64,000 nt of DNA from the IMG/VR virus record IMGVR_UViG_3300045988_122545, positions 1 to 64,000 of that record. One strand, written 5' to 3'. The translations under genes and the position numbers were made by a program. This document shows positions 1 through 55,624 of the stretch, piece by piece. This DNA comes from a virus. The notes beneath the pieces are model-generated. The model ran no database searches and was not told the DNA's origin. It saw only the letters and a list, made by a program, of their open reading frames with translations. Within the stretch, counting starts at the first letter, position 1; each line of letters opens with the position of its first letter.

Positions 1-2782
1 ATTTTTTTTGAATTTCTAAAGTTTGAAGTTTATCTCTATCTTCATTATTCATTTTTGACTCATCGATATATCCAGAATTATCTCTGTATTTATCTTTTAA
101 TAATCTTATTTTAGAATCAATCTAATCTCTAGCAGCTTGAGCTTCAGCAGATAAAGAATCCATTATTTCATAAAACTCCGTAGTATATTTTCTTTCAGCT
201 CTATGAGATAAAAACTAATTTTTTAATTTTGCGAACTAAGCTCTTAATATAAGATCTTCTGGTAAATTTAAATCACTTGGTTTCATTCCAAATTTTATAC
301 GTAATTGCTGCATAAAATTTGCTACATCATTATTAAATAATCCGTATTTTCTATTTCTTATCAAATAACCAGTTGGTTTTCCATTCTTATCTGTTTCATA
401 AAATTGAAGTAATCCGCCTTTTATATTCTATGATAACCTATTTATAATTACAGATTTATTAAATACTCTTTGTCTACGTTTGTTCTGGCTATCCTGTAAA
501 AGTTTATATAACGTTTTCATAGCAGGGTCTTTTACTTTGTCAGGAGACATAAATAAACGTGTTAATTGAGTAATATCTCTATTTGTATTTAGCACATCAC
601 CGTTCACAAATTCATTTATCGTAGATAACCATATTTGATTAGAACTATCAATATTACTTTCAATCATTATTCTTTTAAAATTTTCTGTCTGCATCTATCT
701 AAGATGATTTCTTGAAAGTTGTAATACGTTCTATACGGTAATAGTTAAATCTCTTAAATTCTGAAATACATCTGTATTTTTAATAGTATCAAATTTACTA
801 AGATCGTCGATTATATCAGATATTTCCTGCATCATCGGGCTATAAAATCCAAAGAAATTTCTATCTAATGATAGAATTCTATCATCGTTTAATACTTTCT
901 AATTATTATATGCATCTAGTATTTCCTATGCTATTTTTGGTAAATCGTTATTTACTAATCTTGTAAATTGAAATATGGCATACAAATCATTTACATTTTC
1001 ATCATTTAATTGAGATATTAGATATTTAATATTTGCTTCTGCTTCAGCTTTATCATCTAAATCAACAATATCTAACGTATTCAATTTTATTTCCATACTG
1101 CTAGATAAAGACTTTCTTAATTTAGAAAGTTGTTCATCTATTTTCTCTTTAGTGTTTATTTGATATGATTGATTTAGCTATTCTAACTACTATTGTAAAA
1201 CATCTCTGGTACCGTCTAATTCTCTATTAAAACTCTCTCTATCTATCCTACTGTTATAGAATTCATCTACTGATTCGTATGTATCAATTTCCTTAGCGTT
1301 TACCTATAATATTAAATCTTCTATTGTATTATATAAATCATCTAATTGTTTTACGGATGAATCAAATTTCTATTTGGGCGAATCGATAATGTTGATTTTT
1401 CTTAATACATCTACAATAAATTCTATGAACTTCTACCAGACAGATTTGCTATCATTGTGAGAATTTTTTGTATCACTATCGATATTCTTGACCGCGTCGT
1501 AAATTATCTATCTAGTAACAGGATTAACCATGAATTCATTTATAAATTCATCTATGCTTTGATCTCCTAATCCATAAAATTTATATTCATCTGGAATATA
1601 TTTTACTAGTTTATCTTTTATTTCCTAAAATTCTTTTCTGTATTTAGAATTTTTAGGATTATCTAAAAATTTTAATAAATAATGATGTAATAATTCGTGT
1701 GCTACCGTTTCTGCAATACTTTCTAATGAACTATTATGGATCGTTTCTGCATATATATTTATATCACCATTGTATGTTGCTAATACATCTTTATTATCTT
1801 CTGGTTTTGACCAACGCAAGTTAACATTTGCTGGTACATTATATAATAATCTTAATAAGTTTAGTACATTTCTATCATAAATTATATCAGGAAATTCATC
1901 ATTCGCGTAATTTTTCTATGAATTCTCCTCATTTAACATAAATAATCGTTCAATCAAATCTTGACTGTTTGATATTTTACCAGAATCTATATCAATGTTT
2001 AAAGCTGATCTTTGTTGTGTTTCAGTAAGACTGAACTATATACGATTATTAGAGTCATATTTTCTATTATAGATATTATTATCTATGGTAGAGAAAGTAC
2101 CACGATTGTCTATTGATTTTATCTGATTTGGGTTTTTAACTACCCATTCTCTAGTAAAATCTTTCCAATTTTCTAAAGCGTCTGCAAAACTAGCTAATTC
2201 TTTGGCATCTTCTTCATTTACTTCTATTATGAGACCATCACCGCTTTTATAGTAATTACTATCTCTGTTATCAAAAGTAGTTAAATCAGGATTTCTTAAG
2301 TTGATAAACACATCAAGATATCTCGCATAAGGAACATATCCCTGTTCCATAAAATTTCTTGCAACAGCTTGATTCATTGTTCCAAAATAAAATCCTTTAT
2401 TTTTACCCTTGTTAAATTTAGAATCAAATGTATCAAAAGTTGCTGTAGCGAAATGATGAAGAATTAATGGTTCACCATTACTATCTACTACTTTAGATAC
2501 ATTTGTTTTATCGTCCTGTTGCCAATCTCCAAACCAATTCTTAAACGTTTTAGAATACACATTTGCTTTAGCTTTTATAGCTAAGTCTCTGTCTCCATTA
2601 TAATGCTATAATAAGTCTGAAAACAGCTTAGACTCAGCCCCGTTAGGGGCTTTATCTAAACTGTATCCATTATTCTAATCCCATAGATAATATGCTGCAT
2701 TTTCACCAACAGCATCAACTAATTCATCAAATTCCTATTTAACTTTAGGATCGCTAAAATTTGGACAAAAAGTATTTTTCAT
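1..2782 (-). CDS. Large virion/cargo-type protein with an HExxH zincin motif. Start is ATG 2780-2782 and the 3' end runs off the window. TAG-recoded.
   Basis: ORF-track pieces 2036..2560, 1625..1819 and 428..694 share one frame and every boundary is cta (TAG). Codon-by-codon reading of 2561-2782 and 2-80 shows no TAA or TGA. Motif AHELLHH lies at about 1685-1699. The ATG sits 2 nt after the TAA of the upstream giant gene. Confidence 0.7.
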
Positions 2783-2784
2783 AA

Positions 2785-5700
2785 TTATTTACCTTTACAT
2801 TTATTTTTAACTATTTCTCCTAAAGCGTTCATATCATTTAAGAATGAATCGTCTATAGGATTAGATATATTCAAATCCCCAGTATCTACAGTATTAACTT
2901 GTTTAACAGCACTTTCAATTAAAGCGGACATATCTGTAAATATATCAGCTTCATTTTGTAAAACTTCAGGTATGTTTTCTGTCATATTATTTGTTGCATC
3001 TCCAGTTGAAAAAATTTCTATACTTTCTGGAGACATATCCTATACATCAACAAAACCTGTGTAATCTGTAATCATAGAAGTATCTATACTAGAATATTCA
3101 TCGTATCCTGGATCTACATAAGTTTGACCTTGTTCTTTAGCTTCTACTGCATCGATTAATACGTCATCTATAATATTATAATTTAATATGTAGTTTTTAA
3201 CATCATCTTTTACATCATTTACTCTATTTTTACCCGATATATTCATGATTTTATCTACAATATTATCATTCTGTAATTTTATAGATTCTTGTATTTGTAA
3301 TCCGTCTATTAATGCTGCACTTGTTATATTGTTTTGTGGGAAAGCTGATATTTGTGTAGAACCGTTTACATACTCAAATATTCTAGTCCCATTATCTTCT
3401 ACTCCTAACTTAGGAGTAAGCAAATACACACTTCTAAGAGAACTTCTTATTTGAGATTCATCATCAGCTCTATTAAGCATTATTTCTCCAACCTTACGAT
3501 ATAATTCACCATTAACGTTTATATATCTGTCTTTGGTATTTTTAGTCATAAATAATACTCTCTTTCTAGATCCATCAGGAGCAATAAATAAGGTCATATC
3601 ACCGTTATTATCATATTTATAAGGCTTTACTATTTCTTTATTATACCACATATTTCTTGCTATTGTAGTAGAAATAGATGGATAATATCCAGATTTAGGA
3701 TCATCTATAGATTCAGCAACCATCTGACCAGCTACAGAATTAACATCACCAAAATCTTCTAAAGCTTTTCTGAATTCAGTAGTATACCCTTTCTTTATCT
3801 TCCAACTAACTGGTACCAAATTAAAGAAATTATTTACCGAATTATTATCGTATGTTGAAAAGTAAGCATACATAGCTAAATCTTCTGCAAAATCTCTGAT
3901 AAATTCATCTTCATGATTTAATAAATCGTCAAACGCAGATATTAATACGTTTTCTGTATATTTATCATTATTCATTGATGAATTAGATAATATTACTTTA
4001 TCTAACATTGTTTTAGTACCATCAGCTGAATATTCTTGTAAATAATTAAGTAACGCATTTTTAATAGTTCCTGTATTCTTATCAATAAGTGTAGGATAAT
4101 TATCTTTTTCCTCTAGAATATAACGTTTAATTGCAGTTAATCTTCTACACATTGTATCTGGACCAATAAACATATCATATAATTTATCTCCATCAATATT
4201 AAAATTAGGATTATTGGCAGCAATTCTTGCTCTAATTACAGATTCCAATGCTTTATTTATTTGAACAACATATTCCTAATCATTTGTATATTGATATTGA
4301 GAATCATCTTCAGATGGACCAACAAAAGTACGCATAACATTAGTATGTATATCCTCATATTCTTTTGTTGCAACAATAGATTGTTTTCTAAGAATGGTTC
4401 TAGGTAATGTTAAACCGTAATACAATTTCTTACCTAAGAATGTAACTTGCATATAATATTCTATTGGAGTTTGATTTTCTATTAATACAGCTTTACTATC
4501 ATTTATGTAGAATATATCTTCATTCTCTTTAGAGAAAGTAGAAACCATATTTTTAAAATTCATTTGAACAGCAAGATTGTTACCATATTTCTTAGTATCG
4601 ATCTAAGATATTTTTACAAGTTTTGCTAATCGTTTAGCATCTGAATTTAACTCTTTATATGCTTTCATTACAATCAACTGCTAATAAGCATATTCAGCGC
4701 TAGTCTTACTTGCTTTTAAAGCATTTTTCAGTTTTGATTCATCAAATACCCAATCATATTGAATATTAGTTATATTTGCGTCATTCATCTGACCAATAGG
4801 TTTCATCTTACTATATGGTCTTTCTCTTAACCAACCATTATACAATTTTATATATTTCTATTTTTCACTTCCATCAGGCATTATGTTAATAGCGTCATAC
4901 AATACTTTCTCATATCGCTGATAATATTTATTTATAACTTTTGCTTCGGTTATAGTAGGATCTACACCATATACACCCCTGTTTGCGATTTGCTCAGCTG
5001 CATACATTTTTAATATATCTTGGGCTAAGAAATAGAATGTTGACTATCCTTTACCGCCTCGCAATAATAAGTTAGTCATGTTATATGTAATCTAATTAAC
5101 ATTTAATGCGATGATATATGGATCTTTTGCAACGTCAACGTGAGCGTTAATCATTGCAGATAACCAGTCTAATATTCTAAATCCGTCTTGTCCTTTTATA
5201 GCATCAAGATTTCCAAGATTATATCTATTACCGTTAGCATAATTCATACACAAATGTGCAAATTGTGTTAATGCATGGTTTGTAGAATTCAATGCAAACG
5301 GAGCAATACCTGCTTTACCACTGGTATATTCTATTTTTCTAGATAATTGGAACGATGGTAATAAAGCGTAACCAGGTTTAGCTTCTGCTAATACGGAAGG
5401 CATAACTAATTTTAATACGTCTTTCTTTAAGAAAGAAGTAAGTGTATCGATTGATGCTTTAGTTTCAGCCATATTGTTTTCGTCAGAAATACACATCATC
5501 TAATATTCCAACATACGATTTGTTATAGCTTCCTTACTTTGCTTATAGAAATCTACATTCTCATCATATTCTACTTTTTTACCGTTTTCAAAATCATATA
5601 TAGCTATATACAATTTATCAACGTCAAAGTCAGAACCAGTCATAGCGGTAAATCCATCTGGAACAACTATTGTATCAGCATAAGTTTCTGGTAATACATC

Positions 5701-8700
5701 CATTACAGTAAAGGCAAAAGTTGATGATGAACCCTGGGTAGGAATACGATAACCAATACCTATTGGTTGAGAATTTTCACCAATTATGTTATTTTCAAAT
5801 AACCAATCTCTCATCATTTTAAAGTTTGCCTATTTTTCTTTTGGAACAATATGTCTAAAGAAGTTAGTAGATAACATTACTTCCATAGAACCATTATTTC
5901 TTAGGAATTTTAAAGAATTACCATTATTTAATGGAGACATATCATTAGGATTGTATTCAATGGTAGCAGTTTTCTTAAATCCAAAATTAGACATCTGAAT
6001 AGCAGCACCACCTTTTGTATTTATGTCTACAACTGTTTTATTAACTAACGATATTATTCTACTTTCAATCCAGTTTCTAGAACTCATAGCACTAACAGAA
6101 ATATTGAAATTTCCATTTTGATCTAACTATAAAGCGTTTATGACTTCTTCAGACATTCCTGATGATTTAGCTTCTTTTATCAATTCATTAGATAACTTCT
6201 GATTATCTATAATCCATTTACCATTTTCCTTTTTAAAGAACTATCTATGGATATCTTTAACACCAAATTCAGTTAATCTATCTATGCAAGACATTATAGT
6301 TTGCTTTATATCAGAACCTTTTACTTTCTTACCTTTGTTTAATCCATAAGTAAGATCATCGCGTAAATTTGATAAAAACATTTTTACAGCCTATGTACCC
6401 ATACTTCTATCCATATGTTCATGAGGATCTGTATTTAACTATAATCTTAAATGTTTTATATCTTGAACTAAAATAGGTAAATCACCGACTTTTCCAGTTT
6501 TTGCATAAGACGGTTTATTCAAAGCTTCAATGTTTAATTGTGTATTTTGTTCGTCTTTATACATTTTAAATGTATTACCTAACCCAACTTTAACAGCAGA
6601 TTCAAATACTAACATATCAATTACTCCAAGATTTTCATTGTTCATACGATCGTATATTAGTTTATTATCTGCTTTACACAAAGATTTAAACATCGGGAAG
6701 ATTGCCATTTTGTTAAATACTGGAATATCCAATCCTAACTGTTTATCAAATGTATCACCCATATAAACCATTTTCTATACATTAAGTATAAGAGGTTTAG
6801 CTAAATTATATAGAGTGGTATCATTCATCCAATTATCGTTGTTTTCAATTATTCTATACGCTTTTTCAATTTGATCATTCCATCTACCTTGAGCCATCAT
6901 TAAACGTCTCCACATTGCTGGACGCATGTATACAGCGGCATCAGATTGATTAATTTCTCCATCTTTGTACGGTGCTGCAGCTAATTTAGACATTTTATTT
7001 ATTCTCTGTTGTGTAGATTCGTCAAATTGTTTCATTATATCATTCATCGTATCCATATTTATAGTAGAATATATTTCATCTACTGATAATTCTGGATGTA
7101 ATGATTCATATTCATCTCGTATTAAAGATAATTTATTTATATTTAGTAATTGTTCATAAAATGGTATAGACACTTGATTATCTGAAAGGTTTAAAACAGT
7201 ATATTTAGTATCGTTACGTTCATCTCCGTCACCCCAGTTCAATCTCATATCTGAACCAGTAGATAATACTGAGGATAGACGTTTAATTTTATCCACATCC
7301 ATACCTATAATCGTACTAAATTCAGCATAATCTTCAGGATTTATACCAGGATTATTTTTAATATATTCACTCAATCCGTCTTTATATATAACTGGCTAGA
7401 AAGAATCATCATTTGGTTTATAAATGGTAGATACACTTAACCATTTATAATATGCTGGATCTCCAGTAAAACATCTTTCTACTTCCTATATTGATATAGC
7501 TGTATTAGCAACATGAGATCCTATAATAGAATATAATATATCATCTGTTTTATTTAATGATGAATAACCTGCAGCGTTTATAGGTTTAAATCTTGTATAA
7601 TATTCGGATACAATATTAGCTGGAATAAGTTTATTGTGTAATAATCCCATCCCGTCTCTGGTTATTATACCCATATTTACTAATTTTTCAACCTCTCTGT
7701 TTGTTAAATCTATAAGATAATTATTAACAAGTTCTTTTAAATTCTATTTGTTGTTCTTTAATAATTGTTCTCTCAAATTATCTAAATATAATTTTACTGC
7801 TAAATCATTGCTATTTGTTTCTAGTTTGGCCAAATCTTGATTTAGATTCTTAGTTTCACCATTAAATACGACATTAGTAAAATATCTAAATCTACCACCG
7901 TTACCACCTGGCAGCATCTTTCCATTTTTTATTTTACCGTGATAATTTTTTCTCCACAATTCAGGATGTGTTGCAACAAAATCTTTTTTATTGAAATAAT
8001 CTATAACAGCATTCAATTCAGATTCAAAGTAATCAGAGAATATATTTATTGCGTCTGAACTAAATCTACGCTCGCCAATAGTAGATACCTGCTATATAAC
8101 ACCATTTACACGTTGTTCAACAGTATTTACTCTAGATAATGTTTCGTGTAACAGATTATATCCTGATATACTATACCAAGTCTTTTTATCTGACATTGTA
8201 GGTAATGTCATCTAATCAGCATTAGTTAAACATAATTTTATTATATAATCTTCTATAGGAGATATTCCGAAATAATCTCTACTTGTCTGAGATTCTTTCT
8301 CTTCTACTGCTATTAATGTATGTAATTTGAATTTAATTTTACCAGCATTTCTAGCTAAAATAGAACTAGCACCATATTTTGAATTTAATATGTTTGATGC
8401 TTTATCGTACATATTCTTATTCAACCATCTTATCTAATCTGACATGTAGTTATTTTCACTAATAGGATATCTTAAACTACCATCAGCACCCGTAACACTA
8501 AACTCTTCAGGAGAAGGATGAACATTACCATATGATACAGCAACTAATCCTATAAAAGTATCTGTTGCATATGGAGGAACGGTAAATATTCTGTTCAAAG
8601 GAATATTTGCTTTTTTAGGATTTTCTTGATAATTTTTTATATTAGTTAATATACTTCCAATAGAATAACTTTTATTACTCTTCCATAAGTTTTTAAATTT

Positions 8701-11700
8701 CTATAAATCATTTATGAACTTTCCGTCTTTATCCGTTGATTTTATGCAATTTAACATATAATCGAAGGTAGGAGAATCCATAGGAATGTATAATAAATTC
8801 ATCAACTGTATGAAATTATCCTTTATGTTATCCAGTAAATCAGTCTGATCAACGTCTTTTTTAGATATTTCTTTTAATATATTATTTATATTATTTTCAT
8901 ACGTCTTTATCTGTTTTACTAACAACGGATTTACAGTTCTTCTATTTCCATCTAATTGTGTATTGTCAGAAGAGAAAAATGCTAACGACCATTGTCTAGG
9001 ATATCTTGCTATTTTAGTAAGATTACTACTATCTTCAATATCCCATATACTTCTTTTTTTGGCTTCTTCCTCTAATTGCATTCTTATTTGAGGATCTTTT
9101 TCACCTTTATAATCAGGTTTATCAGGATGTATCTTAATAGTAGTCATACTATTTTTACTAGATTTTATAGCAACTTCCAACTGTGTTTTCTCCCATTGAG
9201 TCAACTGATTATCCGTATCAGCCAATCTTTCTTTAAGAGCATAAAAGAATGGATCTACAGCACTAAGTCTGTCGCATCTTTCTACCATTTCATCAAACGT
9301 ATCAATATCCCATAAATTTTCCATTACTTTATTCCATGCGATAGAAAAAGGAACTGATTGGTTTAAATTAAATATAGGATCTGTTACAGGAGTAGGTATT
9401 CTTATAATTTTTCCGTCTTCGTATTCAACTGTTTCAAACTGATATTCTGGTATAGAGTAAAAGAATAGTCTTGCATTAAATGCTAATTTGTCTTTCTTAG
9501 AATGTTCTCCTTGTTCAGCATCCCAAGTATTATCTGGCATATCGCCTATTTCTCGTTTCTATTTCTATTTGTCGTCACTTTCTGCATTTTTGGTGTCACT
9601 TATTTCTTTATCTATACCCAAATCCCATAAATATTCTTTTATATATTTACTGAATAATTCACGATTACCCAATACGTCTAATGCTATATCCTAATAATCT
9701 GGATTAATAGAATCACTATTATATAATTGTTCTAAGTTATTAAAGACACTATCGATATTTAATCCTTTCTATAGTTCTCTCTATGTTCGTACTTGCATAT
9801 AAGATAAAGCTGAACCAACTAAAGATCTAACTATATCATAAAATATTTGTCCATCTGATATATTTGGTATTTTAGAATATTCTTCTTCAGACATACCTGG
9901 TATATAAAAATGTAAACCAGAATCATACGCCTGATTAAATTCATTCAATACACTTTGAGAAGGTTTGTATTTAGCAAAGTCACCTTTGTTAATTTTTGCA
10001 TACATCTGAGTATGTAAACCAGGTCTTAGAAAATCTAATTTTAATAATTTTCCAAGTCTATCAAAGAATTTAATTATATGATAAGATTTAAATATACTCT
10101 TCAAACCAACCATATAATCTTTAAATTCTTCAGCCATCGCTTCTTCTATCTATTCTTTAGTATAATCTTCTGCTTTTTTATGACGCTTTATATAGTCTTG
10201 ATATAAAGCAGATCTTTGATTCTCTGTAAGCAGTAATTGACTAACATAGTGCCATGCTTCATGGTATGTAACACCTTTTCCTCCGTGTTTAGAAATTACT
10301 ATTTGTGGATTAAATTCTTTCTTAAAGTAATCCCATACTACACGCATAACACCGTATGCTTTTTCATTAGAATGAGTACGAAGAACAGAATTAGTTATGA
10401 ATATATCTTCATCAGTTAATCCTAATTTATCATTCAACCATTTACGAGCTTTTTGTTCTTTTAATTTACCATTACTTTTTTCTGTAGAATACCATCCCTT
10501 CTGTTTGTATCTTTCCAATCCAAAATTCTTAAGATAGTCTTTTACATTCATTTGAATTATAGAAGGTTTTCCTGTTTTTGGACTAAAGAATATGACATAT
10601 CTAGATCCCAATTGTGGAGCTCTCGTTGGTTTTTGTAACTTATATTTACTTAAATTTTCATCTGTGACTAATTCAGGTTTCTTACCGATGTTTTGTTCCC
10701 ATTCAGGATTTATCTCTTCGGTAATCTCCTATTTAACACCGTTTACAACTACTGTTTTGGTTATTGTTTTCTTATTAGAAGACTTTTTCGGTGTATCTTC
10801 TACCTTCTGTACAGACTACACCTTCTCTTCTTTACTTTTCTGATCTTCTGTAGATACAGTATTTTCTGTTTCTGCAGACGATTTTTGTTCATATCCAGTA
10901 GATGTTGAAATATCACTTCTAGCTACGCCATCTGCAAATACAAAAGGAGCTTTGAATAAATGTTCACCTGTATCTATCTTAATTTTTCCGTGATTTATCA
11001 TCCACGCAATGACAGACGGTGCTTCTTTTTCTCCTTCTATTTTAACTATGTTGTTATTATCATCAATCGTGTAGCCTATATCCGATAGAGTAAAAGCAAC
11101 ATCTGGACCTAATATTTCAATATCAGTATCTTTTGTTAAGGTTTTACCAGCGTCAATATATTCAGATTTAGCTATTTTTAATACATATTGAACTACACTA
11201 TCTGGAATTCTAGACATCATTAAATCTTTATCTGTATTCCAGTGGATATTTCTAGATATATTAAAAATAACTCTTCTTCTCATTGATTCGCTAATGTTAT
11301 CCAATACTATATTACGTATTGCATAATTTTTCTACAATGAAACATCGTCTATATTAGCGGTACCTATCTAAAATACTGTTCTATTCTTCTTATCAACTGT
11401 TACATTTAAAGCTTTACGAACATAAAATTGAACATTAGCAGTTGGACTAGAAAAATGTGGTATAGTTCTCTCTCCAGTTCTAGCTAGTAAACTCAAAAAG
11501 AAATCATTTAATTCTTGATTACTAAACAAACCTTTAGTCATTAATTCGTATATTAATTCGGCTGTAGAAGGTTTGTTATTTAAATTTACTGCCTAATGCT
11601 TATTATCATATGTTAATTTAATATCTTCTGGTCTAGTTACTCCAGGTATCCAATGCTTTTCTTCAGTAAGCATTATAGGTACACTAACTCTTTGAGAAGG

Positions 11701-14700
11701 TGTTTGATTAACTTTTGGAATAACGTATAATTTACCAGCATATCCTATAGCTTGAGATGAAGTAAGTTCCTCTGTATTGGATAATTTAACAATTGCAAAA
11801 GGATCTTGTAAACAAAATGCTCCTTTACCATATCCAATTTCTAATTCACCTTCTTCAATCATGTTAGTTAAAGTATAAGGATCATTTGACAAATTCAGAT
11901 CACTTACTTCTGTTAACTTTCTGAATACAGGTTGTTCATTTTGTTTTATATTATTTATAGTTCCATTACTTATTCGCAAGTTAATCGGTTTACAATCTTT
12001 TCTAGGAGTAGAAGGTAGCGGTTCACCATTTATATAATTAGGTGCATAAGTTTGAATTATTTGCTTTCTGAATAAAGATAATGCTTCTAATTCATTATCT
12101 ATGTTCTGACGATTTACACCTAATTCTCTAAGTTCGTATTCTGCTCTTTGTGGAGTTCTTAAAGAAGTAGTATATACAACACCATCTTTTTCTATAACCA
12201 TATGGATGGCTGCATTATTAACAGCAGAATCAATTGTTTTGCTGTTACTTATTCTACGATCATCTTTCCATGCATCAGTAACAATATAATAAACATCATC
12301 AGCAGTTTGTAACCATCCTGGTTGTTCAAGTTTATCAGATAATTCTTTACCAGTACCTCTTTTTGCTATTTTTCCATCTTTTGTTATAAAAGATACTTCT
12401 TCTCCGTTTGCTTTTAATATGATAGGTGTTGTAGCAGATGGTTGAAAGAAGAATGTATTCTTGATTAAATTCTTCTTTTGTTTTTTATCATTACTCAAAC
12501 CTCTTGTTTTTTCAATATACTGATCCTATTGTTGTATATCAGTAGCGTGTATTAATCCGTTTTGATTAAATATATCTTCAAAAGTAGCATGGTGAGTAAT
12601 CATTTGTGGATCCAATGATACAAATTCTTCTTCTGTACCATTTGGACTTATACCAATCTAATCATTTATTACGATCACCTAATTTGCATCAGCTACAAAC
12701 ATATCAGGATTATCTCCTGGTTTATTTGCTAATGAACCAGTATCGACAACATCTATTGTTTTATTTTCAGTCTAAATAGGAACATCATCAGAATTAGTAT
12801 CCTGTGTAACAGGATTAGTCTATTCCTATGCAGTTGTTTCTTCTGGAATTTGATTAATATCCAGATTATTATTATCAGCGTCAATAGAAGAAATTAAATC
12901 TATTTTTTTACCATCGTCTATATCTTCTGCAGTATTTTTTACAGATTGATCCTGATCTATCTATTCGTTTATTTCAACTGGAGGATTCTACAAATCTTCA
13001 GTAGAGATATTGTATTGCTCTTCTACTTTATCATTTTGTAAATCTTCTATTCTAGATTCAGTAGAATCATCCTACTATGGTGTAGTTACTTCTTCTTTAT
13101 TATCCAAAGGTGGCATTTCTATAGAATCATCTGATTGTAATTCCTAACTATCCATAGGAGGAGTATAATTACCACCATTTAACTGATTCTACAATTTATC
13201 TATTTCTGACTATTCATCTACTTCATTATCTTGCGTAGGTGTAGATATTACCTTATCATTTTCTGATACAGATGTATCAGTAGGTTCTGTACTAGCTACT
13301 GTTTTTTCATTTCCTTCTGTTTGTGAAACGACTTCATCGATGTTTGGATTTTCAATAGAGTTTGAACCTTTTTCCTATAATTCTTGTTTAGCAATATTTT
13401 CTAATTGCTGTCTGCGTAACAAATCTCGTTGTATAATAGACAGTGCACGTTTATGGGCAATCTTTTCTTTATTTGGAGACTCGTCATCTTTATCCCACTA
13501 TTCGTTTATTTCGTTATTATAATCAGAAATTATCTGTTTTTTATTTGGTTGAGGTTTACCACTATTTACAGCTTCTTGTACTTTAGAATCTATAATTTCC
13601 TATTTTTGAGCTTCAGTAAGATTATTCCAAACAGGTTTAATTAAAGATATATCTCCATTATAAAAACCAGTTGTATAAGCAGATTTGTGTTGAACCAAAT
13701 CATTTAAAACTGCTGAATTTATTTGAGATGCTGCGATCGCTTCTCTAAGTTCACTGTAATTAGGTATAGCTTGTGCTACATCTTCTAATCCTTTATATAC
13801 CTTGTCTTTACTTAATTGTTTAAAGATGTTATCTATATAATTTTTTATAGCGGATATATTTTCAATATTTACATCTATTTTTTTATCAGATAATAATCTT
13901 TTTAAATCCTGCTCTCTACTACCTAACTGATTATTTAAATCATGTAACGTTTCAATAAGAATAAAACGGAGAGCTTCATTTAATATTTGTTCAGTAGATA
14001 TACTTTCTACTGTTTGAACGTCAGCAGTTTTTCCTTCTTTATAATTTTCAAAAGATTTTATTTGAGATTCCCGTATATAATCTTCCTTTATTTTATTTAT
14101 CGCTGCATCTAATACATCATTCTATCCTTCTTTATAATTAAGGACTTCCTATTGTAATGCTATTAATTCATCTAATGATTTTTCTGTTGCACTTCTCTAA
14201 TCATTTTCTTTATCTGACCACAATAAAGCATTATTAATATATCTACGATACGTATCTGATTTTTTATCTATTTTTAAATCAGTCGTATTGTTTTTTGTAA
14301 CATTTGCTCTATTCAAAGTCCATACTTTACTAGCTAATTCCTTATCAGCATCAATCATTTTATCTGTGACACCTTCTGGTTTATTAGCACGTAATTGTTC
14401 TAAAGTATTATGTATACGGGTTAATGAAGAACTATTATTGTTTGCAGCTCTTAAAAATGCAGATATTTTCTCATCATTTTCAGCATTAGCGTATCCATTT
14501 GCAGCTAATTCTTGTAATTTACGATCAGTATTAAGCTGTCTTATTCCAGAATATATATTTGGTGCGGTGTAAGCTGTACCTAATACAAATCCAGTAAATC
14601 CACCTACATCCATATTCTTTTTTAATTCCTGATCAGTATTTAAAGCATCATCTGTATGTAATCCGTAATATGCAGCTCTAGCCTCAAAACCTAATCTGAA

Positions 14701-16509
14701 ACTATTTACCAGTCCGTCCAATAAATCGTAATTTTCGATATTGTCGTATTTACCTTGACCATATTCTTTACCTACTAAATATTGTTGACCTTCTTCTCTA
14801 CTTTCCAAGTAAGTAGTAACCAATGATTTTTTTGTATAGTTACCAACGTTTTCTATTATACGTCTAGCAGAATTCTTTTTAATCTAATTTTTACTACCTA
14901 GAGTTGCAGCGTTAACTAATTTATTAGTTAACATCTATTTTGCTCTATTATAAAGAGAATGGTTTGATAATTGACCTAATGTTTCATCATTACGATTCAG
15001 AATAGAAGATGCCATTCTATCACCGGCTATAGTAGATTTAGATGCGTTTAATTTACTTATGTCTTTTACGTATCTACCACCATACATATACATACCAGCT
15101 TCTATTAAATCTGACAACATTAATGCATTATTAGTTTGTTCAACTACATCTAAACCTTTTCTAGATTCATCTATAATTTGGTCTATATTAGCATTACCAG
15201 TATTTATACCAGAGCTAAGCATTGCTCCAAACTTTTGCTGGTCGTCCATACTTTCTACGTCAAAACCTAGTGACTCTAAATTATTATCTATATAATTTTG
15301 TATGGAACTATAATCGATGTTTCCTCTTTGTATTTCTTCAATAACTCGTTGCTGATAATTATCAAACATTTCAGATGCGGTTTCTTTTTCTCTACCCATC
15401 TTTGTTAGTCCGTACTGTATACCAAATTCACTAGCACCAAGTAATAGTGGAGCTAACGTTCCACCACTTCCAACAGTTAATGCTGCACCGGCTAATCTAC
15501 TTATTGCTGCATTTGTTACAATTTGCGCAGCCATTGTTTCTAAATTTGCATAGCTTGATCCAAGTTCAGGTATAGCTTTCCACCAACTATTTGGATCTGA
15601 TATACTTATATCGTTATTTTGATATGCCTCTTGTGCTCTAGGATCTATTTTAGTCGGATCAAATAACCAACTACCTTTATTTACAATATTAGTTCTTTCT
15701 ATAACTTTCTATAATTTAGCATTATAACTAGTTTTAGCATCATCTAATGCGTCGGTTACATCTTGATAACGTTTTTGCAGTTTAGATAAATCGTTTAAAT
15801 CTATTTTTCTATTCCACATATTATCGAAATCTTGTTGACTAAGTGCATCTATACGATCAGATGGTCCTCTTTCAATAAGATGTTGGAAATTATTTAATGG
15901 ATTAACATCATCTATTAAACGTCTATTATCCAAATCTACTAAAGTTGAAGCTATACTAGCTCTTCCTGCATTAACGTCATTATTACGTATTGCATCTACC
16001 AAACTAGTTTCATAAAATATATTTTGTAAATAAGGATTAGTTCTAGCCTATTCTTTAACAATTGGTTCTAGCTAGTTTATTTTATTTAGCAGATTATATT
16101 TCAGTGTTTCTATTTCGGTAATCTAATTGTCATTTAATCTTGTTAGATCTTGTGAATTTAATTGTTTGTAATTCATTGCAGCCTATACGTAATCGAAAGC
16201 TGTCTATACCTGCGGAAGCCACGTTGCTTCAGTCTAACTCAAATTGTTTTGAGCTTCACTCAGTCTTACTTGTGCACGATTCTTATTTGCCTATCTCCAA
16301 TTATCTTCTACACTAGGAACATAATCATCATTATTAGATGATTCATTGCTAGTTGAAGATGAAATAGCATTGTCTACATATTGTTTAATTCTATAACCAG
16401 TAGCTGCAGGAATTTCATATTCTCCTGTATTTTCATTATATTTATACTAGTTAATAAGAGATCGCTTACTTTCTTCTAAGTATTGTTTAAATAAAGTATT
16501 GTCGTTCAT
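2785..16509 (-). CDS. Giant (about 4574-codon) TAG-recoded virion protein containing an RNA-polymerase beta-prime-like double-psi beta-barrel catalytic motif. Candidate virion-packaged RNAP / cargo polyprotein.
   Basis: 22 ORF-track pieces from 2785..3036 up to 15709..16002 are all in one frame (coordinate = 1 mod 3) and all are separated by cta (TAG). I read gaps 4564-5091, 6088-6438, 7375-7485, 12499-13680 and 16003-16509 codon by codon and found only TAG, no TAA or TGA. ATG at 16507-16509 lies 12 nt after the TAA (16521) of the upstream gene, and the true stop is TAA 2785-2787. Motifs: YRIPTQG...GSDFDVDKLY (5617-5631) and YHEAWHY (10249-10263). Not every gap was checked. Confidence 0.7.
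5617..5631 (-). other. DFDVD metal-binding loop (DxDxD) of a DPBB RNA polymerase domain
   Basis: The context IGYRIPTQGSSSTFAF...TIVVPDGFTAMTGSDFDVDKLYI parallels the beta-prime pattern R-x-P-T ... NADFDGD. Confidence 0.6.
12600..13400 (-). repeat. Acidic/polar low-complexity linker (D/E/N/T/P/Q-rich) inside the giant ORF, with the highest TAG density seen
   Basis: Direct translation gives, for example, TP(TAG)(TAG)DDSTESRIEDLQNDKVEEQ and A(TAG)E(TAG)TNPVTQDTNSDD. There are 16 in-frame TAG in about 394 codons (12499-13680). Confidence 0.7.
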
Positions 16510-16520: not shown

Positions 16521-18413
16521 TTACTGATAATATTCATCATCAAAATCAGCATTTTGCTGTTGTTTTTGTCTAACGTTATACATTTCTCCAGCTTGACTTC
16601 TACTGAGAATTAACTGATCGTGAAAATTATTAAAATCATCAGATCCGGATTGTCCAGTAGTAGGTATACTATTTACAAAATCAGTAGAGTAGTAAACATC
16701 TCCACCTTTATAAGTACGTGTTATAGTACCTTTATTTTTACCTTCTGGATTATCCTCATTAAAATCTTGTTTCTTATTTGTTCTTTCCAATTGTTGAGAT
16801 GTTACTTTATTAAATCCAGCGTTTCTCATCAACTTATCAAGATTATCATAATATTCTTTCAATTTTCTAGGAGACGTTTCATTTGGATCATAAGGATTAC
16901 CATCATTATCTTTTACCATTGGTAATAAATATTCTCTTTTTATAGCCTATTGTGTAGCATTCATATTTCCTGATGCTATCGAAATAGAACCTCTAAGACC
17001 TATTACTTCAGCCGGTATACGATTTCTTTTAATATAATCATTAACATATTTTGTAGGACTGTTTGCCGTATAATTGTTTCCACTCATGCGCAATATTAAA
17101 TCACTAAGTAAATCGTAATCACCAATGTTCGATACTGTAATTCCTAATCCGAAATTGTTATCGTTTTTAAAACTATTAGGCATAGCTTGTAATACCGTTT
17201 TAACCTCTCTATCACCAACATAAGGCATTATTAACGATTCTGCTGCGAAATTAATATTTTTACGTAACTATTTACCTGTAACATATCCATCTTTTGCTCC
17301 ATTAGTAATAATAGTGTTTAAATAATCTTTTAAACCATATTTTCTTGTTATATCTTTATATTGCTTTGCTATTTCCTTCATTTTAGCAGAGTCTTTGTTT
17401 TTCTCAGCAGATCTATACTATTCTTCTAATCGGTTAACCGTTTGTAAATCTTCTGGTTTAAGTATCATATTAAACAACATTCCTTGCATATTTGAATACA
17501 AGTCTCTACCACGTTCTTCTATTTTTTGAGTAAGAGATTTATTAGAATTAGGAGTTTGCTCAGGATGTTCTTGATTATATTTCCACATTTCAAAACCCAA
17601 TCTATCTTGAATGGGTTTAGAATGTATATATTGTCTAGAAGCATCTACTAATGCTCTTGAAAAAGCATTATCTATATCTACGGAAGTAGCATTTGGATTT
17701 ACGCTTAAAACATTATTAGCAATATCTCTAAACCACATTCTGCCTTGAGGTGTACTAATAATATCGTTATATCTACTATTAATTATATCACGAATATCCT
17801 TTTCTGTTACCGCCATCCAATTAGTATAAGATAAATGTTGTCCAGAATTTGGATCAACTCCTCTATAAAAAGTTTCTTCAATATTTTTTACATAAGGATC
17901 GATAATTGACTATAACGATTGATATTGAATAGGAGAGACTTCATCAAATACTTTTCCGCTTTCTAAGGTAGAATATTTATTAAAATCTATAAGATCCCAA
18001 TTTTTATTATATTGCCCTTTTTTAGCTAATTCTTTAGCAGCGTTAATATAGTTGTATGCATTTGTAGCAGAAGCTTTTAATTTATTCAAAGAACTGTAAT
18101 CTACCGAATTTATAGCATTCTATAACTAACGTTTAAAATCAAATGTTTTTAAATTATCTGGATTACTTACAGCAGAATCAATTAGACTTTTTATTTGCGG
18201 ATTCATAGCAATTCTATAGTAATCTTCAACATCTTTTTTAATAGGAGAATCAAAAGATTTCCATTCTTTATTATAATCTGCTATATCTTGTATCGCCTAG
18301 TCAACTCTATCGTTATACTCTTTACCTATTTTATACAATTGTTCAAAAGGTATTGGTACGTATTGACTTACGTACTAACTTTCTACAGGTTTATCAAATC
18401 TATTTACTGCCAT
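16521..18413 (-). CDS. Structural/cargo protein (about 630 aa), TAG-recoded
   Basis: Pieces 16521..16919, 16947..17228 and 17418..17816 are in one frame joined by TAG. ATG 18411-18413 overlaps the TGA (18415) of the upstream gene. Stop is TAA at 16521. Confidence 0.7.
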
Positions 18414-18414
18414 A

Positions 18415-20394
18415 TCATCTAAAATTTCTATATAATTTATTTACGGTATCTTGTGTAGAACCGTAATTGAAAAATTCTTTCATATACTCCAACATCGCTT
18501 GATCTCGATTATTTAAACGATTATCACGGGACATTGATTGCAAAGCTGTACCAAGTTGACTGAGACCAGTATTACGAATGGTTCTAGCCGCTGCTCTATT
18601 TTGAGCATCTTCTTCATATCCTCTATGGAATGCTTCAGTATTATATCTAGCCCAATCGTTATATATACCAATGTTTCTAGCTTTTCTTTCATTTTCAATA
18701 TTATTCTTCTGATTATATGCTTGAGCGATAGCTCTGTTTCTAGCAACTTGTGATTGTACGGCTTGTGCCAAATTAGCACTTCTACCAAACCCACCTGCCT
18801 AATTAGCATTATATCTTGCAATAGCGTTGGTCATATCTATTTCTCGCAATATTGGACTAATATCATAATCTACTGGAGCAAAATGTGGAGAATAAGTGAA
18901 TACTCTTGCTTTTTCAGGATCACTATTATAAATGTTAGCCATTGGTCCTATTAATGCAGCGCCATTAGTTAATATATCAAATAATGATCCATACGATCTA
19001 TCATTACCATTATTAGGATTAGTATTTCTCTTAGGAATATTTATTTTCCCAGGACCAGTATAAATATAATTATTTGTGAAATTATGGTCGCCTATTTTAT
19101 TCTATACACTGTAATTCTATCCACTAATAGGTACTTCAATATTATGTGAAAATGAACTTCTAGAACGTACTGGAGCAGCACTATTTGCTTCATCCGTAAA
19201 AGGAGTAGAAGATATGTCAAAGTAATCATGTACTTGTCCATACAGACCATCCTGAACATTCTTAACTACAGCATCTTCAAATGACATACCTGCTTTTAAA
19301 TTTTTCTAAATTTGTGGTAAACCACTTAATACTTTATAAGCATTATCATAATTATCTTTGTTCTTTAAGAATGTACGTACAGATTCGCCTGCTTGTTTAT
19401 ATGCGTTTTTATCAGCACTTTTGTACCAAGAAGTTGTAGCACGATTTCTGTCATGACGTATATTTGGATTATAATTAGGATTAACTCTAATAAATAATTC
19501 ATTCATTTCATCTCTATCATCGGCACTAGTAACAGGTTCTGGTAATCCTAGTGTACCCGTTGCATATTTACCAACTTTATTCTTTATTCCTCTTTTAGCT
19601 TTTACTTGTTCTTGTAAAGCAAGCAATTCATTATATTTTTTCTAATTATTACGATCATTTAGCATTTGTGTATTCTGCGCATAAATATCGTTTCCTTTTT
19701 TCTTACCTGTTTTCATATACTTTTTACCAGCTTGTGCAAAAGTTTCATTAGTTCCTGGAACTTTTAATTTATCACTTAATACCTAAGTTCCAACAGGAAC
19801 ATTAACTAAATTACTATCTGTAGGCTTTCCTTGTTCAGGAATTTGGCTTATTTCTCCATCTGGAGTTCTCAATAATTCTCCATCATCTAGATATGCAAGA
19901 GTAGTAGGTAATATACCTCCGTAAGCAGCTAAAGAATAATCATTGTCACCATATTCATTAGCCCATTCTTCTTGAGCTGCAGCAGTAGCGTTAGCGTCAG
20001 CAATACCTTGATTTACTCTTCTCCATTGAGCTCTAACTCTATTTCTACTACGTCTGCCTTTAATACCTTTACCTTCGATATATTCACCAGTATCAGTATT
20101 GACAGAATCAGATGTACCAACCATGGCACCTATACCTTTTGTTAACATACCTGCAGCTTTACCAACTACGCTACCAATTGGACCAAAGGCGCTACCTACT
20201 GTTTCTAATCCAGTAGCAATACCACCAGTAATAGCATCAGTTTTAGCATTACCACTAGAAGGAATTAATCCTGTACCTAAATCTAATCCTGCACCTACTG
20301 CATTTCCTAATTTATTTAATTGACCAGTAGCTTTATCAATTAATCCTCCTAAAAAATATGAATCTATATTTTTATTTTTTCTTATTCTTTTCAT
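18415..20394 (-). CDS. Structural/cargo protein (about 659 aa) with an N-terminal Gly-rich hydrophobic segment, TAG-recoded
   Basis: Pieces 19783..20394, 19306..19626 and 18415..18771 are in one frame. Gap 18772-19305 was read codon by codon (3 TAG, no TAA or TGA). Start is ATG 20392-20394 and stop is TGA 18415. Confidence 0.75.
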
Positions 20395-20534
20395 AACATG
20401 GACTATCTAAATGTTGTTTTTATTAAAGGTATTTCAATTTTTTTATCATCATTACAATCAAAAGTATATTCACACAGCATATATTTACCTCTCATTCTTG
20501 GTGAAAAAGATCTGTTTAATATATCTTGTTCTGA

Positions 20535-23500
20535 CTCATCGGAACTTCCTAAATCCCCTCTATCTTGTCTAGGTATAGGAAAACGATAAGTATCTTCTCT
20601 ACATTCTATATTATTATAATTTATTTCAAAACTGTCCTAAGTTTTAGTGTGACATTTTACAGAAGTAATAACTTGTGGATAAGAATTATTCGGATCTTCT
20701 ATATTACCAGACAACCATTGATTATCAAACACTTTTGTATATTCAGGATTAGGATTAACTGCAAATGTCACTTTAGCAATTAAATCTTCTACATCAGCTT
20801 CTTCACCAAATGAATCATTTTTATAAAAATTAGTACCTCGTATAGTTATTAATCTATCATAAAACCGTAATCCCCAATCAGGAATATGTGAATAAAATGA
20901 TGTAAAACAATCAGATTGTTCATTATATATCAATGAATTACCTTTTGCTTTTAACCATAATTCATTAGTTTTATCATTAAAAACAGAAGTAAGATTTATT
21001 TTACTAGTCTACGCTAATGAATTTAAGAACGTCTGTACCTTTTTCTCTTTTGAGAGTATATGGAATCCATTACTACCGTATGAGCATATAACGTTTTTAT
21101 TAGTATCATACCAATAAATACTTTGTGAACTAGATATAATACTTTTATCATTTACTATACCCGCACCATAATTCTAAACTATTGTATCAAAACGACTTAA
21201 TACTCCTCCGGTACCTAATACTAATTGAGCTCCACTCTAATCACTTATAAGTGATCTATCATCTACAGATAAAACATTAAACGCATTTTGTTGGAAAGCA
21301 TATAAATTATTATTAAATACATTTAAACTAGTAGTAATACCATACTTAGCATCCAAATCCAATGTATTAGCAAACTTAGCTTTAGACCAAGAATCTATTT
21401 CTTCTCCAAATGATTTTTGTTCTGAACAATTTATGCGGTAATAATTGGTTTCGTTTGTAGAAATATTTTCATTCGTAGAACCAGAACTATAATTTACACC
21501 ACCATCAGATACAGAATAAGCTGAATTATATGCATACATCTGATAAGAATAAGTAATACCATTCAACGTAGTAGGATTAGTAAACATAAACCATCTGTTT
21601 TTTGTTTCCCCTTCTATCGCTTCTGGTTCTGTGGAATGTTTTAAATAATAATCATCCCATCTAGCATAGCAATTTATAGTAGATTCTACAGGTAAGTATA
21701 CTTGTAAGTAGCGTCTATACCAGGTTGCTTCTTCCTACCAATCGTTTTTAGAAAACATAGATGCGTGCATATAATTAAATACTGTAAGATATACATCTCC
21801 ACCAAATATTACTTTACCTGTCGCAGCTTCATTTTCTTTTATGTATCCACCACAAGATATATAATTATTCGATGATCTGGATAAATAAGAGTTACCACCG
21901 TAAGGTGTAGCTCTTTTCTTAATATTACATAACAAAGTTACTACTTTTGGATCAGTATCTGTACTTAATGTTTTTGAAAAAGCATTATATAGTATATGAT
22001 CAGCATTAACATCTGCTGATTTCATATTTATTAATTGATTCACACCAGCTATGCCAAAAGAACCAGAAGCAACAATAGTGTTTGTATAATTACCAGCATC
22101 AATTGAATCAATATAACCGTCTTTAAAAGCTTGTATACCACTATTATTTTGATTTGGTAAATCAGTTCTTGCTGTTTTAGTATTACCTATATCTGCAATA
22201 AAATTATTAGACTGCTATGTTTTAGATACTCCTTTGTTACTCTTAAATAAATTATTTGCTGATTCGTGTAAGAAATATTTCATTACACCACCTATGATAC
22301 CAGTATTGTTATGGCTGCCTATTACCAGTATAGGTTTATCTTCAGTATTTATAGTACCCATGGTCGATAAACCAGCAATAACATCAGATACTTCACTATA
22401 ATATGACATATCCTAAGTCATGAATCTACGTAAACTTCCAGAATTAAAATCTGATGTTAACTGATAAACTGGACATATATAACAGCTTTTATCAATTACT
22501 TCAGATTTATGGTTCGTGCATATTTCAGGAGACGCAAATATTTTTAAATTTCTATTTACATTCCATCCATCTTTACCATGAAATATTACTGCGGTTATCT
22601 TATGTTCTCTACTAACTTGAGGATATTCTCTCATCGTCGGTATATAAGGAGATCTAATGTCATTGGTACCGTTTGATATATCTGCATTAACATCACTATT
22701 ATCAAAATCAACGTTTCTAAAATGTACTGTATTATTTAACATACCCTGCGCAACCACAGTTCTATCTGAATAAGTTCTATCACATCTTACTATTTCAGCA
22801 GCAACGGCTTCATCAGGAAAGTTTTTAATAGTGAATTTTACACCAAATGGTCTAGCTATCAATTCATATTTAGAATTAACATTAGTTATATCATTTGCAA
22901 ATGCAGCGCAACCATCAGTATCACCAGATGGAAATCGTATATCACATATCCAATGTACTGGGGTAGTAACATTATTTTTATTATAAAAAACAATACCAAA
23001 TCTATATACTTCATCACGTTGATATGATTGAAATTTAGCTGCGATGTATGGATTAGCATAGCTTAATAACTAATCACCATTTAACGATATAGATGTTACA
23101 CCTACGTTTGTTTTTAATTTTTTTATCGATATTGAAGACCCTGTAACGTTAGCTGCTCCATTATACGAATCGTATAATTTACCATCAGCAGTATAAGAGT
23201 CTGTGATATGTGGTGATTCATATATTTCCCCATATACAATTTCAAAATCAATGTTTGTACCACTACCTCCATAAGTAATACCATCTTGTTGAAAAGCATA
23301 TTCATTATCTTCTCCGGAAGGATATACATCTAATACGTTCATAGGATTTATAGCGTCATCATCATATGGAATACTATCTATCTAACTAAATGAATAAGTT
23401 GTTCCATTACCATTAGAATCCTATAATAAACACTATTGATTTTTATTAAATCTGAAACTTCTAGTATCCCAATCTTTAGGTATATCCCAATCAGATGATT

Positions 23501-24521
23501 CTATATTTGCAAAGAACAGTCTGTTTTTAAAAGAAGTCATTATCTATGCTTTAAATATATACGGTATGATATCATTGAATTCTTCTTGAGTAACAGTAGT
23601 TAAGCTTTGCATTAAAGCATCTGTTATAGTATAATTTAAATTACCTTTTGATATTCTATCTTGTAGTATTATAGAAATCTCTGGTTCATTTAAATTATCT
23701 TTCCAAAACACTCGATATATTTTTATCTTATCAAACTACGTATTATCAGCGATAAATCTTAATACTATACCATTTGATGTACTATAATCATCAGAGTATC
23801 CTTCTGCTTCAGCTGAATTGTATATATTATATTTGTAATTGTATATTATTTCAGAACCGGCAGATAATGCAGATTCTATACCAGTATCGTTATACAGTTT
23901 ATAAAAATACTAATATGCACCAGATTTTAGATTACCAGAAGTAAACGACTCTAAAGACAACGGCATCAATGTTGCTAAAGCATTACTATCGAAATATGAT
24001 GGATTTTGGATTGGTTCTTTATCACCCCATTCTTCTTTGTAATCTGCAAGATTTATTATTTTTAAACCAGAACTAGAATCGTTTACATATAACTTATATA
24101 CACTTTTTGTTTCATAATTGTATATCATACTAATATTCATATCCGCTGTTATATGCCATAATATCTTCATTACGCATCTACAAGATAATTGTGATTTATC
24201 AAAATCACTTACCAAATATATACTATTAATAGCATTACTATACTTATCCTAAGTAAGTAATATAGCAGTATTCTACAGAGTTTCATCATGATAAGGATAT
24301 TGAACAGCAATAGCATTTAAAATCTTTTGTGTTTTTAAAGCATCTATTTTTTCGTATTTCTTAATATAATCTATGTTTTGTAAAACACCGTTTGTACCAT
24401 TAGTATTAGTAACCAATCTAATATTTTGAGCATATCGATACGTATTATTTGCAGCATAAGATACATCTGTATCCATATCCATACCGCCTTCAAATGTATT
24501 TTTGTGTGAATTTATTTCCAT
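20535..24521 (-). CDS. Large tail/virion structural protein (about 1328 aa), TAG-recoded
   Basis: Eight ORF-track pieces (20637..20933 through 24273..24521) are in one frame and every boundary is cta. Gap 20934-21236 was checked. Reading continues through TAG at 20637, 20568 and 20559 to TGA 20535. Start is ATG 24519-24521. Confidence 0.65.
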
Positions 24522-28578: not shown

Positions 28579-28592
28579 ATAATTGATTTATA

Positions 28593-40705: not shown

Positions 40706-40813
40706 TTTTTAATTTATTAATTTGTTAGACTTCGCGCCAGTCTTCGCTCTATTCTTCTACTTTCCTATTTACTAAGTAAATTAATTTCCACGTCGAATAA
40801 GCGCATTAATTTA

Positions 40814-44114: not shown

Positions 44115-44185
44115 AATTAATATTTTAGTTATACTTTATATAACGTCAAAATATTAATTATGTTGATATTTTACCTAGAAAAAAT

Positions 44186-46855: not shown

Positions 46856-46865
46856 AATTAACATA

Positions 46866-55609: not shown

Positions 55610-55624
55610 TACTGCGCGCTTATT

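Follow-up and report, generated by a model that had tools for sequence, protein, structure and literature searches.

Can a 13.7-kb stretch of viral DNA that is crossed by dozens of in-frame TAG codons be a single gene, and if so, what would its protein do? This question is raised by positions 1 to 64,000 of the IMG/VR virus record IMGVR_UViG_3300045988_122545 (the window, 64,000 nucleotides (nt) in full), in which an initial annotation had stitched one open reading frame (ORF) of about 4574 codons through TAG and had seen in it the giant RNA polymerase (RNAP) that crAss-like phages package in their virions. The analysis described here makes it very probable that this is a late gene for a multidomain virion cargo RNAP, in a phage of the Suoliviridae, a family of crAss-like gut phages, with TAG recoded to Gln. 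The giant protein, of about 520 kDa, consists of seven parts, which are, from the N to the C terminus, an N-terminal domain with two Gly-rich hydrophobic segments, an acidic disordered linker, a middle domain, a second linker, an HExxH module, the equivalent of a cleft-blocking domain and a gp66-type, presumably two-barrel polymerase.

One reading frame with 62 in-frame TAG codons

The giant coding sequence (CDS) occupies positions 2785-16509 on the minus strand of the window, the strand on which all features of the giant gene and its neighbours given below are found. It is 13725 nt long, from ATG to TAA, and has 4574 sense codons plus the stop codon. When all codons are read, 62 TAG codons and no TAA or TGA codons are found in frame, also in the four gaps (9541-9780, 10612-10815, 11305-11592 and 13681-14196) that had not been read codon by codon before, and the single ORF is thereby confirmed. 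At the composition of the window (30% G+C), the chance of 4574 codons without TAA or TGA is ~1e-141. ORFs cover 59.5 kb of the window with TAG as a sense codon, versus 30.7 kb with the standard code; in the TAG-recoded map, essentially all long ORFs are on the minus strand. The single long ORF is also independent of the recoding assumption, because the relatives cr10_1, cr118_1 and cr50_1, which use the standard code, keep uninterrupted giant ORFs of 4460-4946 amino acids (aa).

Two alignments clearly favour Gln among the residues that had been considered for TAG (Gln, Ser, Leu or Tyr). In the alignment of a nine-member family, no residue is more enriched opposite TAG than Gln (3.4-fold), which also gives the best BLOSUM sum, and the TAG-facing columns at aa 3357 and aa 3373 are invariant Gln. 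The closest relative, P0003 (4599 aa, itself with 64 TAGs), is 62% identical and collinear over residues 6-4574. When compared with this protein, the TAGs of the window face Gln in 21 of 49 informative columns, with 9 further TAGs being shared, and in the reciprocal comparison the TAGs of P0003 face Gln in 23 of 50 informative columns. The share of Gln is therefore 43-46%, against a background of ~4%, and Tyr, Leu and Ser together account for only 2-3 TAG-facing columns per direction. Ser, Leu and Tyr, which had been prompted by the long variable arm of the tRNA described below, are rejected, as the alignments favour Gln. Judged from these alignments, TAG in the giant ORF is read as Gln (genetic code 15), in agreement with published work on crAss-like phages.

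The amber-suppressor tRNA and the reading of TAG

A single tRNA is predicted in the window by ARAGORN, at 55876-55964 on the minus strand, having the anticodon CUA. This amber-suppressor tRNA would be needed for reading the 62 TAGs. Its cloverleaf has a 7-bp acceptor stem, an A73 discriminator and a long variable arm, together with a D-stem of 5 bp, a 4-nt loop without GG and a T-loop without C56. The Rfam tRNA model misses it at the gathering threshold, and the best Rfam family, tRNA-Sec, is also below threshold. A 91%-identical copy, annotated as tRNA-Gln, is present at the same place in cr113_1, upstream of the terminase gene, and further copies are found in 18 IMG/VR contigs (19 other contigs when cr113_1 is included; L011 1497-1587 and L012-L029). 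Six variants of this tRNA have four different acceptor stems, all perfectly complementary, and a compensated change in the anticodon stem. Because of these conserved copies with compensatory changes, comparison of the sequences indicates that the suppressor tRNA is a real gene. Its shape suggests a type-II tRNA and not a normal tRNA-Gln, while the alignments say Gln.

The ORFs upstream of this tRNA (56300-62516) have 0-2 in-frame TAGs each, and most downstream ORFs have many. TAG-free late ORFs also exist, for example at 28027-28587, 39719-40708, 43032-44135 and 45698-46915. The distribution of TAG fits the published early/late recoding split, with the tRNA at the boundary.

It is highly improbable that the long ORF is an artefact of stitching, with TAG terminating translation fully or partly and giving shorter or nested read-through products. 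The host presumably uses the standard code, and this code breaks the giant-gene region into fragments of at most 412 aa, as such a reading would have it. However, none of these fragments has a start of its own, the conserved domains and motifs are distributed over them, and the standard-code relatives encode the same protein without interruption. TAG aligns with Gln, none of the ORFs of the window ends in TAG, and the suppressor tRNA is both present and conserved. In addition, according to a review, mass spectrometry supports the reading of TAG as Gln in another Suoliviridae phage.

Two further observations concern the surroundings of the tRNA. About 70 nt downstream of it, at ~55744-55806 on the minus strand, there is a second tRNA-like element, called by neither ARAGORN nor Rfam. 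Its acceptor-like stem is 7 bp long (UCCACAG/CUGUGGA), its T-arm is good (GUUGG-UUCAAGC-CCAAC) and its anticodon arm is aberrant. An ORF of 1429 codons with 19 TAGs (51389-55675, minus strand), which lies close downstream of the suppressor tRNA, is by position the putative counterpart of the intein-containing large terminase annotated beside the tRNA of cr113_1.

Homology of the C-terminal half with gp66 of phi14:2

The initial annotation had likened the region around 5617-5817 to the double-psi beta-barrel (DPBB) of the beta-prime subunit. The motifs of beta-prime are NRAPTLHR ... NADFDGD. In a phmmer search against PDB sequences, aa 3180-3835 match PDB entry 6VR4 chain A, which is the virion RNAP gp66 of Cellulophaga phage phi14:2, with E=1.1e-32, and in this alignment GYRIPTQG is paired with GYRIPNQG of gp66, and GSDFDVDKLY with GSDFDIDKMY. 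In the same type of search, aa 1-3200 have no match, and the single sequence therefore does not reach the N-terminal half of gp66. The profile of the nine-member family covers residues 175-1840 of gp66, with 89 + 206 bits (bit scores are quoted here, as the E-values refer to a tiny local database). The C-terminal half is thus, as judged from the alignments, homologous to the virion RNAP of phi14:2, and the giant crAss-like virion-type RNAP gene that had been proposed is supported by both searches.

The landmarks of gp66 were placed on the window protein by means of their published positions and local profile alignments. The gp66-type polymerase module comprises aa ~2343-4400 (3310-9483). It is preceded by the equivalent of the autoinhibitory, cleft-blocking domain, aa 2298-2342 (9484-9618), which corresponds to residues 196-233 of gp66 and has a conserved DNxWD...SKKD; in a simple pattern search, this motif is absent from gp47 and gp50 of Bacteroides phage crAss001 and from gp66 and gp67 of phi14:2. 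The equivalent of the connector between the two DPBB domains is aa 3349-3503 (6001-6465). The family-invariant YRIPTQG (aa 3587-3593; 5731-5751), aligned with YRIPNQG of gp66, is 40 aa upstream of the putative catalytic DFDVD (aa 3627-3631; 5617-5631), which is aligned with 1361-DFDID-1365 of gp66, and DFD[VI]D is invariant across the nine family members. The bridge-helix equivalent follows at aa 3717-3742 (5284-5361) and the trigger-loop equivalent, which lies in the most conserved part of the protein, at aa 3778-3816 (5062-5178). Conservation in the family is highest at aa 3200-3800. The Val of DFDVD also fits the rule for position 4 of the catalytic motif that is stated in the literature for all crAss-like RNAPs. 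The comparison with beta-prime is sound, because the gp66 landmarks, the conservation peak and the Val at position 4 agree. By alignment, the connector between the predicted barrels, the bridge helix and the trigger loop map consistently on the window protein.

Relatives of the giant protein

Top tblastn matches with full coverage are all from Suoliviridae. In all eight annotated Suoliviridae records that were examined, which represent five subfamilies, the same position is taken by a single CDS of 4400-5443 aa, flanked by the same neighbours; five of these CDSs contain in-frame TAGs (37-148 per CDS), and those of cr10_1, cr118_1 and cr50_1 contain none. From the best matches and the shared gene order, the giant gene is assigned to a Suoliviridae (Crassvirales) phage. 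No relative of the gene at the DNA level was found among annotated phages. The giants of cr125_1 (YP_010113174, 4502 aa, collinear with the window protein), cr6_1 (YP_010112711, 4400 aa) and cr7_1 (5443 aa) have the same position, domain order and motifs, but their identity to the window protein is only 35-40% from end to end and about 50% (~50%) within the core of the polymerase. In GenBank, homologous giants are named 'nuclear pore complex protein-like protein', 'DNA helicase', 'exonuclease V' or 'DprA-like' (NC_055900, NC_055894, NC_055891, NC_055872, NC_055868 and others), and their domain content supports none of these names.

The size of the protein, which had been called exceptional, is ordinary when compared with these eight records and with metagenomic relatives of up to 6581 aa, and crAss-like RNAP genes reaching ~6000 aa have been reported in the literature. 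According to Drobysheva et al., the RNAP of some phages is fused with its neighbours into a huge polyprotein for which cleavage is probable, and the enzyme might be activated by proteolysis. Since such giant fused RNAPs are already described and the relatives share the architecture, the window gene belongs to a known class, of which it is a new and fairly divergent member.

When the profile of the HExxH module was used in an exhaustive HMMER search, 1562 representative clusters were matched; most of the best matches have 3000-6581 aa and carry the module in their middle part. Among 106 representatives of at least 1500 aa, 60 have the full architecture of the window protein, 15 have the N-terminal domain, the module and the polymerase without a recognisable middle domain, 18 have the module and the polymerase (a few of them with the module at the very N terminus), and 13 have only the module, mostly at the C terminus as in gp47 of crAss001. 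These architectures point to fusion and fission on both sides of the module. Two proteins, P0075 (6581 aa) and P0090 (6320 aa), have two copies of the module each, with HExxH at ~750 and ~2500.

When compared with the better-known systems, gp66 of phi14:2 (6VR4) is, by alignment, homologous to the window protein in the catalytic region, with the cleft-blocking segment, the regions of both barrels, their connector, DFD[IV]D, the bridge helix and the trigger loop; it differs in being a separate protein of 2180 aa, which lacks the HExxH module and the N-terminal part of ~2000 aa. Its upstream neighbour, gp67, has no detectable similarity to the N-terminal half of the window protein. In crAss001, the C terminus of gp47 resembles the HExxH module, gp50 resembles the polymerase part and gp49 resembles the ORF downstream of the giant gene, but these are separate genes, with gp47 on the opposite strand from gp49 and gp50, and the first ~2000 aa of gp47 have no detectable similarity to the window protein. 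In sequence terms, the giant gene appears to correspond to two Steigviridae genes (gp47-like and gp50/gp66-like) joined at the HExxH module. By analogy only, it can also be compared with the virion RNAP (vRNAP) gp50 of coliphage N4, another giant polymerase that is ejected and that has an N-terminal part for ejection, a linker and, next to the polymerase, a domain with HExxH; however, the N4 enzyme is an unrelated T7-like single-subunit polymerase, its HExxH domain is C-terminal to the polymerase, and no significant structural match to N4 was obtained, an N4-like vRNAP being found only with E=1.3 when the module model described below is searched against BFVD.

The HExxH module

The HExxH ('ZN') module (aa ~2005-2297, ~290 aa; 9619-10497) is located directly before the cleft-blocking equivalent. 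The HEAWH that had been noticed at 10249-10263 is exactly there and corresponds to aa 2083-2087. The segment IEEAMAEEF (aa 2121-2129; 10123-10149), predicted to be helical, carries an invariant Glu, which is a candidate third metal ligand. In nine Suoliviridae proteins, HE[AG][WFY]H and the downstream EE(A/L)(L/M)AE(E/D)F helix are invariant, and 28 diverse homologues share without exception the two His and the Glu of the motif, a Tyr, an Ala and one distal Glu, in EExxAExF, ~40 aa downstream of HExxH. The C-terminal 200 aa of crAss001 gp47 (HEAFH) match the module with 8e-9 in blastp, 4e-18 with a profile and a probability of 98.5% in hhalign, the homologous stretch being residues 2098-2292 of gp47.

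An AlphaFold2 model of the module was made from the TAG-free segment of P0003, which is 67% identical to the window sequence. The mean predicted local distance difference test (pLDDT) score is 79.7, and 88-97 in the core. In this model, a helix is followed by a 4-5-stranded sheet, the HExxH helix (91-104) and two helices, the second of which (129-150) bears the invariant Glu; this predicted layout is as expected of a gluzincin. A Foldseek search of this model against the PDB gave no significant neighbour (best E=1.8), and when searched against BFVD, only the same crAss-like proteins are significant, with IrrE-/SprT-like minimal zincins at E 0.9-2.7. Pfam gave nothing above noise for the whole protein and no peptidase family for the 28 module sequences, and PHROGs gave only weak, irrelevant matches for five overlapping segments of the giant protein. 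FF domains, obtained with a profile of the HExxH region against PDB sequences, are chance matches only. With the HExxH region as a single sequence, a search for protein homologues returned none and an IMG/VR locus search had no match; with an alignment, the protein search returned two fragments only. Recoded genes are probably broken up by gene calls made with the standard code, and the word index limits the protein search as well.

The zincin that had been proposed is supported by the HExxH on a predicted helix, the invariant distal Glu and the zincin-like predicted topology. As neither a peptidase family nor a solved structure matches significantly, the term zincin is kept to motif and predicted topology, and the module is described as having zincin-like features. 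The zincin-like domain of the literature, described by Drobysheva et al., lies in gp65 of phi14:2 (HEIMH), which corresponds by position to the ORF downstream of the giant gene, not to this module.

Two views of the function of the module can be considered. In the first, the giant protein is a self-processing polyprotein, in which the module acts as a metalloprotease that cuts the precursor at assembly or after ejection, thereby freeing the polymerase from the N-terminal ~2300 aa and removing or loosening the cleft block, by which the enzyme would be activated. This would be a refinement of the assignment as a virion RNAP and not an alternative to the identity of the gene, and it is put forward tentatively, as a rather improbable proposal. 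The invariance of HExxH and the distal Glu in the 28 homologues, the predicted sheet, HExxH helix and Glu helix in the confidently modelled core, the location of the module directly N-terminal to the cleft-blocking equivalent and the variable linkers on its N-terminal side are all in agreement with it. Related lineages, crAss001 among them, split the gene just before or just after the module, and Drobysheva et al. have proposed cleavage of the fused polyprotein, with possible proteolytic activation. On the other hand, the nearest zincins are matched only with E ~1-3, phi14:2 gp67 has no HExxH, gp66, which lacks the module, is nevertheless active in vitro on single-stranded DNA, and a cleavage site cannot be defined. 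The most specific version, in which the HExxH is a built-in maturation protease that cuts in cis before the cleft block, separates the polymerase from an N-terminal half that is associated with the membrane or with ejection, and so switches the enzyme on, is distinctly unlikely.

It is also possible, although somewhat unlikely, that the module has no protease function for the phage protein itself and is instead a metal-binding structural or regulatory domain, or an effector that acts on the cell wall or the proteins of the host after ejection. Its occurrence in three contexts (C-terminal, N-terminal and internal) is what would be seen for an autonomous effector or adaptor domain, and some relatives have two copies. 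The neighbouring gp49-like protein has effector-type domains, namely ART-PolyVal and a sporadic HExxH insert, the HExxH domain beside the polymerase of the N4 vRNAP binds and dampens it, and Drobysheva et al. mention peptidoglycan digestion as a possible role of such a domain. No observation separates this view from that of a protease. H, E, H and Glu are strictly conserved, which argues for catalysis and against a purely structural role.

The N-terminal half, the linkers and the tail

The N-terminal domain (aa 1-1000; 13510-16509) is conserved in the family. The Gly-rich hydrophobic segment that had been noticed around 15400-15530 is a Gly/Ala-rich stretch in aa 339-357 (15439-15495), LAGAALTVGSGGTLAPLLL, which is in a hydropathy scan the most hydrophobic 19-mer of the whole protein (Kyte-Doolittle score 1.52). 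A second Gly-rich hydrophobic segment, GGFTGFVLG..., is at aa ~634-652 (14554-14610), and the character of both segments is conserved in the family. The acidic linker of the initial annotation is real: it comprises aa ~1040-1300 (12610-13392), is of low complexity, and is represented in all nine family members by stretches of 221-366 aa that can be aligned only poorly. The net charge over aa 1001-1300 is about -51.

The linker is followed by the conserved middle domain (aa ~1300-1860; 10930-12612) and by the second, variable linker (aa ~1861-1975; 10585-10929), which is 39-116 aa long in relatives. An AlphaFold2 model of aa 1329-1638, a TAG-free segment of the window protein itself, has a pLDDT of 79.6 and a predicted template modelling score of 0.72. 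A Foldseek search of this model against the PDB gave no significant neighbour (best E=0.79), and the middle domain may have an undescribed fold. The hhalign comparison of the N-terminal and middle domains with gp45, gp46 and gp47 of crAss001 and gp66, gp67 and gp68 of phi14:2 detected no similarity; beyond its position and the HExxH module, the N-terminal half is therefore not claimed to be an orthologue of gp47 or gp67. The C-terminal tail (aa 4401-4574; 2788-3309) is acidic and poorly conserved.

Gene neighbourhood

Counted from the first Met, the three genes upstream of the giant gene have 630, 659 and 1376 codons (initially, 1328 codons had been given for the last one). The first two (16521-20394) have no family match and are in the position of the cargo genes gp45 and gp46 of crAss001. 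The third (20391-24521) matches the crassvirus muzzle protein (PF25731, E=2.4e-217, and crAss_MUZ_C) and is, judged from this match, a structural gatekeeper of the tail and not cargo. Of the more than 24 kb of virion cargo that had been proposed, the muzzle gene is thus to be removed, and the 630- and 659-aa genes stay in a cargo position.

The downstream gene (1-2782) is cut by the window end. It is homologous to the RNAP-associated gp49 of crAss001 and has an ART-PolyVal ADP-ribosyltransferase domain (PF18760, aa 100-227, 44.2 bits versus a cutoff of 31.2). The HELLH noticed in this ORF is present, but within an insert that is kept in only some relatives, being found in cr125_1 (HELVH) and cr7_1 (HEIMH, as in phi14:2 gp65) and missing in cr6_1, cr60_1 and cr52_1. 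Polyvalent proteins, reportedly described by Iyer et al. in 2017, are said to occur in phages and conjugative elements as very large, injected proteins of several domains, in which enzymatic effector domains are combined. The curated ART-PolyVal domain of the downstream ORF is a likeness to these proteins; the giant ORF, in contrast, matches no PolyVal family in Pfam. The gene order (muzzle, two mid-size genes, giant gene, gp49-like gene) is the same in cr125_1, cr6_1 and the P0003 contig, and the block of cargo and giant genes is flanked by the PF25731 gene and the gp49-like gene, as expected of a late block.

Proposed role and its implications

The protein is read as a packaged, early-transcribing polymerase because of its homology to phi14:2 gp66 and crAss001 gp50 and its synteny with the muzzle and cargo genes. 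When modelled on phi14:2 gp66 and crAss001 gp47, gp49 and gp50, it would be a late product, translated with the aid of the suppressor tRNA of the phage and packaged in the capsid. It would then be extruded by way of the tail and enter a Bacteroidota host, ahead of or together with the DNA, after which the polymerase part would transcribe the early genes in the host. It is plausible, by analogy, that the N-terminal hydrophobic part and the linker serve ejection or membrane anchoring.

Several points weigh against this proposal. Virion location, ejection and early transcription are known for phi14:2 and crAss001 only, and the packaging, ejection, polymerase activity and final virion size suggested for the window protein are all carried over from such homologues. 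The first ~1950 aa have no homologue of known function detectable with PHROGs, Pfam, PDB sequences or hhalign, so the role suggested for them follows only from where they are in the protein and from their composition. As membrane helices, the hydrophobic segments are borderline at the score given above. Finally, a few TAGs of the window sit in conserved Tyr columns (aa 154 and aa 3670, the latter also Tyr in phi14:2 gp66; nt ~16050 and 5502) or in a Leu column (aa 3245, nt ~6777), unlike the bulk of the TAGs, which are opposite Gln.

Clearly, a recoded gene of 13.7 kb can be recovered by careful reading of the sequence. It adds a divergent member, 62% identical to its nearest representative, to the class of giant crAss-like RNAPs, and it supplies a domain map where public annotation has none, the GenBank names of these proteins being wrong. 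Confident models are now available for both the middle domain and the HExxH module, and neither of them has a significant neighbour among solved structures. The suppressor tRNA escapes the standard tRNA model, and non-canonical tRNAs such as this one may be part of the reason why, in several papers, TAG-recoded crAss-like genomes are described as 'suppressor-less'. As the HExxH module lies directly upstream of the cleft block and gene splits occur both before and after it, a concrete hypothesis can be put forward for the activation of the polymerase. If cleavage in cis were true, the activation step, which the gp66 structure does not explain, could be tested directly, and the splits before and after the module would be evolutionary variants of one processing site.

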